Shown here piece after piece: positions 4,761-6,316 of a stretch of DNA of 36,107 nt (position 1 is its first letter; every line of letters starts with the position of its first letter). Below the pieces are notes generated by a model. That model had not been told where the DNA came from. It was given only the letters and a program-made list of their open reading frames with translations, and did no database searches. The stretch is taken from IMG/VR virus record IMGVR_UViG_2630968500_000009. One strand, 5' to 3'. The position numbers and the translations under genes were made by a program. The DNA comes from a virus (Duplodnaviria > Heunggongvirae > Uroviricota > Caudoviricetes).

Positions 4761-4976
4761 ATGAAATCAATGGATAAGTTAACAACAGGTGTTGCCTATG
4801 GCACATCGGCGGGTAATGCTGGTTTCTGGGCATTGCAGTTACTCGATAAAGTAACTCCGTCACAGTGGGCTGCAATCGGTGTGCTGGGTAGCCTGGTTTT
4901 TGGCCTGCTGACGTATCTGACAAATCTTTATTTCAAGATTAAAGAAGACAGGCGTAAGGCTGCGAGAGGAGAGTAA
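4761..4976 (+). CDS. essQ: Pinholin, phage 21 S-type (71 aa, dual-start motif MKSM)
   Basis: [26 protein letters not shown]...[35 protein letters not shown] closely resembles S21 pinholin; GGTGAGGA SD; two Met codons at positions 1 and 4. Confidence 0.85.
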
Positions 4977-4980
4977 TCCA

Positions 4981-5292
4981 ATGACTCAAGACTATGAACT
5001 GGTTGTGAAAGGAGTCCGTAATTTTGAGAATAAAGTTACGGTAACTGTAGCCTTACAGGACAAAGAACGCTTTGACGGTGAAATTTTTGACCTGGATGTC
5101 GCCATGGACCGTGTTGAAGGAGCTGCGCTGGAGTTTTATGAGGCAGCAGCCAGAAGGAGCGTCCGGCAAGTCTTCCTGGAAGTAGCAGAAAAATTGTCAG
5201 AAAAAGTTGAGTCTTATCTGCAGCATCAGTACTCCTTTAAGATTGAAAATCCTGCCAATAAGCACGAGCGTCCTCATCATAAATATCTATGA
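4981..5292 (+). CDS. ydfR: Acidic hypothetical protein interposed in the lysis cassette (103 aa)
   Basis: ORF tightly packed between holin stop and endolysin start; same position as ydfR in K-12 Qin. Confidence 0.6.
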   Translation: MTQDYELVVKGVRNFENKVTVTVALQDKERFDGEIFDLDVAMDRVEGAALEFYEAAARRSVRQVFLEVAEKLSEKVESYLQHQYSFKIENPANKHERPHHKYL

Positions 5293-5822
5293 ACACAAAA
5301 ATCAGATACGGCCTGTCGGCTGCCGTTCTGGCGCTGATTGGTGCTGGCGCATCTGCTCCTCAGATACTTGACCAGTTTCTGGACGAAAAAGAAGGTAACC
5401 ACACAATGGCATACCGCGATGGTTCTGGCATATGGACCATCTGTCGGGGTGCCACAGTGGTGGATGGAAAAACCGTTTTTCCCAATATGAAACTGTCGAA
5501 GGAAAAATGCGACCAGGTCAACGCCATTGAGCGTGATAAGGCGCTGGCATGGGTGGAGCGCAATATTAAAGTACCACTGACCGAACCACAAAAAGCGGGT
5601 ATCGCGTCATTTTGTCCCTATAACATTGGCCCCGGTAAGTGTTTCCCGTCGACGTTTTATAAGCGGCTGAATGCTGGTGATCGTAAAGGTGCATGCGAAG
5701 CGATTCGCTGGTGGATTAAGGATGGCGGACGCGATTGCCGCATTCGTTCAAATAACTGTTACGGTCAGGTTATTCGTCGTGACCAGGAGAGCGCATTAAC
5801 CTGCTGGGGGATAGAACAGTGA
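5289..5822 (+). CDS. rrrQ: SAR (signal-anchor-release) endolysin, lysozyme family (177 aa)
   Basis: N-terminal weakly hydrophobic Gly/Ala-rich segment ([17 protein letters not shown]) followed by a lysozyme catalytic region; pairing with a pinholin is the phage 21 arrangement. Confidence 0.85.
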
Positions 5823-6316
5823 ATCAGATATTCATGGTGATTTTTCTCGTGTTGTCAGGATTTATCGTCGGAAATGTCTGGAGCGACCGAGGATGGCAAA
5901 AAAAATGGGCGGAACGTGATGCTGCCGCATTATCACAAGAGGTAAATGCTCAATTTGCTGCTCGAATAATTGAACAGGGGCGAACTATAGCCCGTGATGA
6001 GGCTGTTAAAGATGCGCAACAGAAATCTGCTGAAATTTCTGCCAGGGCTGCTTATCTGTCTGATAGTGTTAACCAGTTGCGTGCCGAAGCAAAAAAATAT
6101 GCCATACGCCTTGACGCAGCGAAGCATACCGCAGATCTTGCCGCTGCCGTCAGAGGCAAAACAACCAAAACCGCCGAAGGAATGCTCACCAACATGCTCG
6201 GAAATATTGCAGCAGAAGCTCAGCTTTATGCTGAAATTGCTGACGAACGCTACATCGCAGGAGTGACTTGTCAACAGATCTATGAATCTTTAAGAGATAA
6301 AAAGCATCAAATGTAG
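5819..6316 (+). CDS. rzpQ: i-spanin Rz (start codon uncertain: GTG 5819 or ATG 5834)
   Basis: N-terminal TM segment then coiled-coil-like Ala/Gln/Arg-rich periplasmic domain; overlaps endolysin stop; contains nested Rz1. Confidence 0.75.
5994..6266 (+). CDS. rzoQ: o-spanin Rz1 lipoprotein, fully nested in +1 frame inside Rz
   Basis: Signal peptide with lipobox LTSC and Pro-rich mature part; entirely embedded in Rz. Start could be 5994, 5997 or 6012. Confidence 0.65.

Follow-up and report, generated by a model that had tools for sequence, protein, structure and literature searches.

The window analysed in this work is a stretch of 36,107 nucleotides (nt) from a virus of the Caudoviricetes (IMG/VR record IMGVR_UViG_2630968500_000009). 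We have examined the lysis cassette at positions 4761–6316 on its plus strand, and in particular ydfR, the gene that lies in this cassette between the holin and the endolysin genes. A first-pass annotation, made by a model from the sequence alone, had placed five tightly packed genes here, and both the listing of open reading frames (ORFs) and the raw sequence bear out their positions and packing. What lies here is already known and annotated: a lambdoid Escherichia coli prophage of the Qin type carries this lysis cassette in its late operon. Its features are given below, with protein lengths in amino acids (aa).

4761–4976, plus strand: holin gene (S), essQ-type class II (pinholin), 71 aa, PF04971, identical to K-12 EssQ.
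4966–4971, plus strand: GAGGAG, a Shine-Dalgarno-like motif within the holin gene near its 3' end; the ydfR ATG comes 9 nt later.
4981–5292, plus strand: ydfR, 103 aa, DUF1327/YdfR family PF07041, identical to K-12 YdfR.
5289–5822, plus strand: endolysin gene (R), an rrrQ-type GH24 lysozyme of 177 aa, PF00959, with an N-terminus resembling a signal-anchor-release (SAR) segment.
5819–6316, plus strand: rzpQ, the i-spanin gene (Rz), 165 aa, GTG start as in RefSeq, PF10721 DUF2514.
6012–6266, plus strand: rzoQ, the o-spanin gene (Rz1), 84 aa, inside rzpQ in the +1 frame, phrog_11621.

The holin gene and ydfR are separated by a gap of 4 nt, ydfR and R overlap by ATGA, and R and Rz overlap by GTGA. 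A simple scan has revealed no promoter-like or terminator-like site inside 4761–6316, hence none for ydfR itself, and the Rfam and tRNA scans have given no match inside the cassette. The GAGGAG motif could serve as a ribosome-binding site for whichever gene comes after S.

We have compared the cassette with essQ-ydfR-rrrQ-rzpQ/rzoQ of E. coli K-12 MG1655 and have found only 1 nt different in 1,556, which leads to D129N in RzpQ; the S, YdfR, R and Rz1 proteins are identical to their K-12 counterparts. All five genes are covered by the K-12 annotation (essQ b1556, ydfR b1555, rrrQ b1554, rzpQ b1553 and rzoQ b4689), and in the K-12 prophage Qin they show the same order and overlaps as in the window. 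In addition, positions 4600–6400 are 100% identical to the chromosome of E. coli G5, where the genes are annotated as essD (holin), ydfR, rrrQ and rzpQ. Actually, the whole window is collinear with G5 from hokD through ydfJ with 32 mismatches, and contains a Q-like antiterminator, cspF/cspB, the cassette, an IS1, cspI, and the complete lambda-like head and tail modules. These complete modules and the IS1 just downstream of Rz distinguish the window prophage from K-12 Qin, which is a cryptic remnant. At least 80% of the cassette query is found in one place in 2,086 of the 5,426 complete E. coli genomes (~38%). The same cassette is also carried by the isolated phages PhiR42_1 (99.9% identity), Tritos (99.5%) and HannyBb (96.4%), and it therefore sits in genomes recovered as phages. 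Considering that the cassette is in the E. coli K-12 reference genome and that its parts belong to well-studied families, it has little weight as a discovery.

The family assignments of the five proteins are unambiguous. The holin matches the model PF04971 'P21 holin S' with an E value of 4e-34 (116.7 bits, cut-off 26, model positions 1–63/64). It is identical to S21 of phage 21 at 59 of 71 residues (83%), including MKSM, the Gly/Ala/Ser-rich first transmembrane domain (TMD1), TMD2 and the basic tail. The N-terminal MKSM, with Met1 at 4761 and Met4 at 4770, is the same as in S21, whose dual-start products S71 and S68 are annotated in OL657228; accordingly to this pattern, dual starts at Met1 and Met4 giving antiholin and holin are predicted for the window protein. 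It has two transmembrane segments, of which only TMD2 (residues 34–54) exceeds a Kyte-Doolittle value of 1.6, and TMD1 is weakly hydrophobic. The first-pass description of a two-segment pinholin with an MKSM dual-start motif is thus confirmed at the level of family and motif, and pinhole behaviour would be expected from the relatives. The ORF listing also contains a 96-aa version of the holin with a GTG start (4686–4976), which we have rejected as a listing artefact, as both RefSeq and S21 start at MKSM.

The endolysin belongs to the phage lysozymes (PF00959, E = 1e-23), and its catalytic triad E35-D44-T50 is present in the pattern Glu-8 residues-Asp/Cys-5 residues-Thr. Its identity to R21 of phage 21 is ~33–37%. 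Structures of R21 (3HDE/3HDF, E = 2e-16) and of RrrD (4ZPU) are among its matches, with the N-terminal segments aligned. Residues 9–23, which come after the basic MNTKIR, are weakly hydrophobic, with a maximal Kyte-Doolittle value of 1.69 versus 2.29 for R21. In all variants seen, the N-terminal part contains an ASA (AxA) motif followed by Pro. A Pro at +1 blocks signal peptidase I, and this residue therefore argues against cleavage and for a SAR segment. The SAR segment proposed in the first-pass annotation has a candidate in these residues, which align with the SAR segment of R21, and SAR behaviour would be expected from the relatives. RrrQ-type endolysins are found in 457 phage records. The RrrQ-type enzyme of the window has 8 Cys (52, 74, 109, 118, 136, 150, 157 and 172), all outside the putative SAR segment, and R21 has 4; these residues might mean disulfide-dependent folding or regulation of the endolysin in the periplasm.

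Both spanin genes have relatives among known spanins. RzpQ matches PF10721 DUF2514 (E = 5e-39) and phrog_312 'Rz-like spanin' (E = 6e-57); its residues 1–23 are strongly hydrophobic and form an N-terminal transmembrane segment, which is followed by a periplasmic, largely helical domain. RzoQ matches phrog_11621 'Rz-like spanin' (E = 2e-8). As described before, rzoQ (6012–6266) lies wholly within rzpQ (5819–6316) in the +1 frame, since (6012-5819) mod 3 = 1. It has a lipoprotein signal whose LTSC lipobox conforms to the consensus [LVI][ASTVI][GAS]C from Kongari et al. 2018 (PMC6139136), and the mature part is proline-rich, with 9 Pro among 62 residues. In the same study, 182 of the 528 two-component systems have the embedded architecture. 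The rzoQ gene is unannotated in the G5 RefSeq record, an instance of the gap in spanin annotation that Kongari et al. 2018 have pointed out.

The label 'phage-21-type', which the cassette had been given, holds for the architecture and the holin. Phage 21 (OL657228) has the order S21-R21-Rz-Rz1, and the window shares with it the MKSM holin, a GH24 endolysin (in the window with a putative SAR segment at the N-terminus), an o-spanin gene nested in that of the i-spanin, and the tight overlaps. The label does not extend to the endolysin, given its low identity to R21, or to the i-spanin, which is a DUF2514 protein with 24% identity to the phage 21 Rz in a global alignment and no family in common. 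The o-spanin is not detectably homologous either, and has the architecture alone in common. Moreover, S abuts R in phage 21, where position 40081 is both the last of S and the first of R, so that no gene intervenes. In the strict sense, a phage 21 cassette has S abutting R together with orthologous R and Rz, and the window differs on all of these points. Overall, the comparison describes the cassette as a mosaic that would work like the phage 21 system, with the holin as the only close relative.

Cassettes of Shiga toxin (Stx) phages resemble that of the window in other parts. Their S21-family holins are 77–80% and their RrrQ-type endolysins 88–90% identical to those of the window. The cassettes of the 933W/VT2 type are without ydfR, whereas those of the BP-4795, Stx1a and Stx2c types have a ydfR homologue. 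BP-4795 ORF47 and Stx2-86 gp05 are such DUF1327 genes, starting 4 nt after S, and the YdfR homologues of Stx phages are ~47% identical to the window YdfR with different and longer tails. In BP-4795, ant is located between R and Rz, so extra genes interrupt such cassettes elsewhere too.

The 103-aa acidic, ydfR-like protein noticed in the first pass is YdfR itself. It matches PF07041 DUF1327 over all 93 model positions (E = 1e-53, 179.9 bits, cut-off 25). With an isoelectric point of 5.6 and a net charge of -4, it is mildly acidic. The maximal Kyte-Doolittle value over 17 residues is 0.48, that is, there is no hydrophobic segment and no signal sequence. In the AlphaFold2 model, residues 5–74 form three antiparallel strands and one long helix at a predicted local distance difference test (pLDDT) score of 70–88, and the tail is below 50. 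Across the family, the N-terminal ~72–77 residues are conserved and the C-terminal tails vary, which results in proteins of 72 to 287 aa. YdfR would be a soluble, cytoplasmic protein with a beta-beta-beta-alpha domain and a variable, probably disordered tail. Fold searches were uninformative, the PDB sequence search has given no meaningful match, and no family among the NCBIfam and PADLOC defence models matches YdfR. Six stretches of a 3,128-aa protein with 14 G2F-domain repeats (P0135, PF07474) match YdfR residues 6–62 with an overall E value of 3e-11, which could reflect either a small unit rich in beta structure that both proteins have or an artefact of composition.

We have calculated pairwise ratios of non-synonymous to synonymous substitution rates (dN/dS) for three of the genes. 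The values are 0.21–0.32 for the N-domain of ydfR, 0.05–0.23 for the holin, and 0.01–0.13 for the endolysin (0.07–0.13 in all but the two closest comparisons). Thus, ydfR is a selected gene, but its constraint is weaker than that of the endolysin and than in most of the comparisons for the holin. The possibility that ydfR is not a real gene is rejected by the dN/dS values and by published work, in which the tagged protein accumulated on expression and was purified (PMC13232886).

The first-pass annotation had regarded a gene at this place as unusual. Actually, ydfR is K-12 gene b1555, its N-domain DNA is found at 4,896 places in 3,647 of the 5,426 complete E. coli genomes, and 100 phage records have a YdfR relative. 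The same arrangement was found in E. coli genomes, phage records and IMG/VR loci. The family as a whole is tiny, with 267 clusters in a collection of 5.8 billion proteins and 57 representatives among 1.84 billion cluster representatives. In species-representative genomes there are 8 ydfR loci only, all from Escherichia/Shigella or from bins that are likely contaminated. A search of IMG/VR with the distant homologues P0157 and P0159 has found nothing.

On the other hand, most cassettes with a related holin do without ydfR. The S21-type holin occurs at 15,333 places in 4,842 of the complete E. coli genomes, and ydfR comes after about one third of these copies (~32%), a lower bound because the most divergent ydfR clade may escape blastn. 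Among phage records, 438 have the S21-type holin and the 100 with a YdfR relative correspond to ~23%, i.e., 77% are without it. A homologue of ~47% identity is present in 41 of 47 Stx1a phages, and one is present in 15 of 17 Stx2c phages but in only 2 of 124 Stx2a phages. The gene is therefore absent from most homologous cassettes, phage 21 and 122 Stx2a phages among them, which is one half of what the first-pass annotation had itself named as refuting a lysis-timing or accessory role. When the 80 IMG/VR loci whose holins are closest to that of the window are compared, 49 have the order S-ydfR-RrrQ-type R, 27 have S followed directly by an R21/RrrD-type R, and 4 gave no endolysin. One holin locus (L071) has neither ydfR nor a recognisable endolysin, and nothing clear can be said from it.

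The position of ydfR is constant on one side and variable on the other. Among the Escherichia homologues inspected (BP-4795, Stx2-86, PhiR12_2, Evi, L033, L034 and 79 of the 80 IMG/VR ydfR loci), every one starts 3–4 nt after the S stop, including the clade of 47% identity. A junction of the form 'stop + 4 nt + ATG' precedes the homologues in BP-4795, Stx2-86 and Evi. In VT2phi_272, which is without ydfR, the ATG of the RrrQ-type endolysin occupies the same 'stop + 4 nt' position after S. In these 79 IMG/VR loci, S lies immediately upstream of ydfR and R abuts downstream. On the 3' side of ydfR, the tails differ, the spacers range from 50 to ~1,000 nt, and R can be preceded by small ORFs on the opposite strand; these ORFs suggest that the S/R interval is a hot spot for inserted genes. 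Those between a ydfR homologue and the endolysin are L033:3531–3803(-), L034:3720–3986(-), L091:3317–3631(-), L092:2458–2718(-) and L093:2244–2540(-). One such ORF is annotated as DUF1823, and several ydfR homologues have much longer tails (176–287 aa). In locus L014 the holin is identical to that of the window, with a synonymous substitution rate (dS) of 0, while ydfR has a dS of 0.4, and L055 shows the reverse; this mismatch indicates that the modules recombine at gene borders.

Distant members of the family have also been found outside lysis cassettes. Three IMG/VR prophage contigs, whose nearest phage DNA includes that of Serratia, Proteus and Providencia phages, carry DUF1327 genes of 72–76 aa (PF07041, E = 8e-14 to 9e-9) between lambda-type tail genes, at the following positions.

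L100, 2501–2719: distant DUF1327 gene between the tail assembly gene I and the tail-tip gene J.
L101, 2501–2719: the same, between I and J.
L102, 2501–2731: the same, between I and J.

Each of these genes is followed by an opposite-strand ORF of 99–110 aa, like those after ydfR in several Escherichia phages. Taken together, the patchy spread, the breakpoints at gene borders, and the homologues at the I/J junction point to an optional passenger at module junctions of the late operon, but not to a component of the lysis machine.

As to function, the only study that we have found (RNA Biol 2026, PMC13232886) was carried out on the identical K-12 protein. In this study, a two-hybrid screen recovered YdfR residues 1–72 three times, and these residues are sufficient for the signal. 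Full-length YdfR gives a two-hybrid signal with residues 1–597 of RNase E (Rne), its N-terminal catalytic half, Rne 1–598 co-elutes with Strep-YdfR, and the YdfR eluate holds DNase-resistant nucleic acid. Overproduction of YdfR in uninfected cells causes no growth defect and changes few transcripts, and ydfR is almost silent in K-12 standard culture. The neighbours of ydfR are named 'genes of unknown function' there, and no connection to lysis is drawn (PMC13232886). Our literature search on essQ, rrrQ, ydfQ, rzpQ and DUF1327 has found no functional study of this cassette. Several phage proteins are known to target RNase E, i.e., T4 Srd, T7 gp0.7 and phiKZ Dip (PMC4980113). Like YdfR, which binds the Rne N-terminal half, they are small proteins of phage origin, and they act on RNase E by binding or modification, but no sequence or fold relationship between them and YdfR was found.

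Based on the above analyses, we consider it highly likely that the region is a Qin-type lysis cassette with a phage-21-like pathway, in which ydfR is an optional moron-like passenger that likely adjusts host RNA metabolism. By homology to the phage 21 system, starts at Met1 and Met4 would yield two forms of the pinholin, which would build up in the inner membrane, form small holes there at a set time and collapse the membrane potential. The endolysin would by then have been exported by Sec and be tethered in an inactive state through the SAR segment at its N-terminus, which is weakly hydrophobic. On depolarisation it would be released and refold into an active muramidase, after which the Rz/Rz1 spanin complex would disrupt the outer membrane. 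Located at the S/R junction, ydfR would be co-transcribed with the cassette and probably translated from the ribosome-binding site that the 3' end of S contains. Its product would most likely adjust host RNA metabolism in late phage development and not the lysis clock, because the published data on the identical K-12 protein suggest that it binds RNase E through the N-terminal, catalytic half of the enzyme, and perhaps RNA as well.

Some observations weigh against this view. The SAR behaviour of the endolysin and the pinhole behaviour of the holin are transferred from relatives. The evidence on RNase E was obtained with proteins that were overproduced and tagged, and a contaminant as the RNA binder could not be ruled out by the authors (PMC13232886). 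The Keio ydfR mutant is positive with chlorophenol red-beta-D-galactopyranoside (CPRG), which indicates an envelope defect, in two conditions (Paradis-Bleau 2014, PMC3879167 supplementary files 2 and 5); essQ and rrrQ were not found in these two files. This phenotype is likely polar, with the kan promoter driving the downstream SAR endolysin and spanins, an explanation that we prefer because the cassette is essentially silent in K-12. In the 80-locus IMG/VR sample, ydfR goes with the RrrQ-type endolysin only and never with the R21 type. Finally, the invariant placement directly after the holin gene is the one feature that a pure passenger model leaves unexplained.

The constant placement also speaks for the lysis-timing or accessory role suggested in the first pass. 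In a timing role, YdfR would be a cytoplasmic pinholin partner like T4 RIII, binding the basic S tail and delaying or sharpening the triggering. The junction of 3–4 nt is kept in clades down to 47% identity, ydfR is under purifying selection and, without its own promoter, is made together with S, and a mildly acidic YdfR could meet a basic C-terminal tail of S. However, a dedicated antiholin or timing factor should be consistently present with its cognate holin, and YdfR is missing from ~2/3 of the E. coli copies and from most phage records, as described above. In locus L031, a holin identical to that of the window at 70 of 71 residues belongs to a cassette without ydfR, and the basic tail of S does not change with the presence of ydfR. 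The distant homologues belong to the tail module, and overproduction gives no growth phenotype. The likeness to T4 RIII, another small soluble cytoplasmic phage protein linked to lysis control, is a functional analogy only: RIII acts with RI in lysis inhibition of another class of holin, and YdfR is not known to interact with any holin. We have found no published test of YdfR binding to a holin or of its removal shifting lysis time. Overall, nothing found supports a timing role for this common and optional gene, which experiment ties to RNase E, and we consider such a role very unlikely. We give hardly any credence to the idea that YdfR is specific to the RrrQ-type endolysin, acting as a cytoplasmic chaperone or inhibitor of a cysteine-rich SAR enzyme before its export. 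The exclusive pairing in the IMG/VR sample (49 loci against 27 of the R21/RrrD type), the ATGA overlap of ydfR and R in the window, the 8 Cys of the enzyme, and the CPRG phenotype would fit it. But Stx2a phages carry the same endolysin type (88–90%) directly after S without ydfR, many phages separate ydfR from R by the variable tails, spacers and opposite-strand ORFs mentioned above, the periplasm is where the enzyme acts but YdfR lacks a signal sequence, and the polar effect better accounts for the phenotype.

The remaining alternatives leave the lysis machine aside or reach it indirectly. A role of ydfR as a moron that aids the lysogen or the phage apart from lysis and RNase E, e.g., in defence, anti-defence or exclusion, would agree with its patchy and mosaic distribution with breakpoints at gene borders, with a tiny family confined to Enterobacterales phages, with the occupation of two different module junctions (S/R and I/J), and with the frequent pairing with a small opposite-strand ORF. 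Nevertheless, such a role seems unlikely, as the simple scan shows no own promoter, there are almost no K-12 reads under standard growth, no PADLOC defence model matches, and the published RNase E interaction is a more specific lead. It is quite unlikely, in our estimation, that YdfR is a late-phase RNase E effector, made near the start of the late transcript and binding the catalytic half of the enzyme as well as RNA, which tunes the stability or processing of late mRNA including that of S-R-Rz and thereby affects lysis timing or burst size indirectly. Such an indirect effect could explain why ydfR always comes right after the holin gene. For the preferred reading, an optional passenger in a phage-21-like cassette, a late-phase effect on RNA metabolism is the best-supported lead to what YdfR does, with its physiological relevance unproven.

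In E. coli, where two thirds of the complete genomes have ydfR, the gene always comes after that of a pinholin. If the RNase E interaction matters in induction, YdfR would be a temperate-phage addition to the short list of phage RNase E effectors. If true, this could also bear on the expression of the neighbouring Shiga toxin and lysis genes in the Stx1 and Stx2c phages, which have homologues.

Some features around the cassette were observed as well. An IS1A at 6497–7194 lies between rzpQ and cspI, downstream of the cassette; it interrupts no lysis gene and is shared with G5, and K-12 MG1655 has no insertion sequence there. The full packaging, head and tail modules extend over 9757–32799, from terminase through J, Lom, the tail fibre and tfaQ. 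With these modules, unlike cryptic Qin, the window prophage may be an inducible phage. The cassette is flanked by cspB and cspI, and Rfam cspA thermoregulator elements lie ahead of these two genes at 3631–4023 and 7310–7695. A strong terminator-like hairpin is located after cspB at 4289–4308, and read-through from cspB might account for the reported cold induction of essQ-ydfR-rrrQ. In addition, there is a match to the Rfam IS009 RNA family (221 bits) at 32567–32765 on the plus strand, in the region of the 3' end of the tail-fibre assembly gene.

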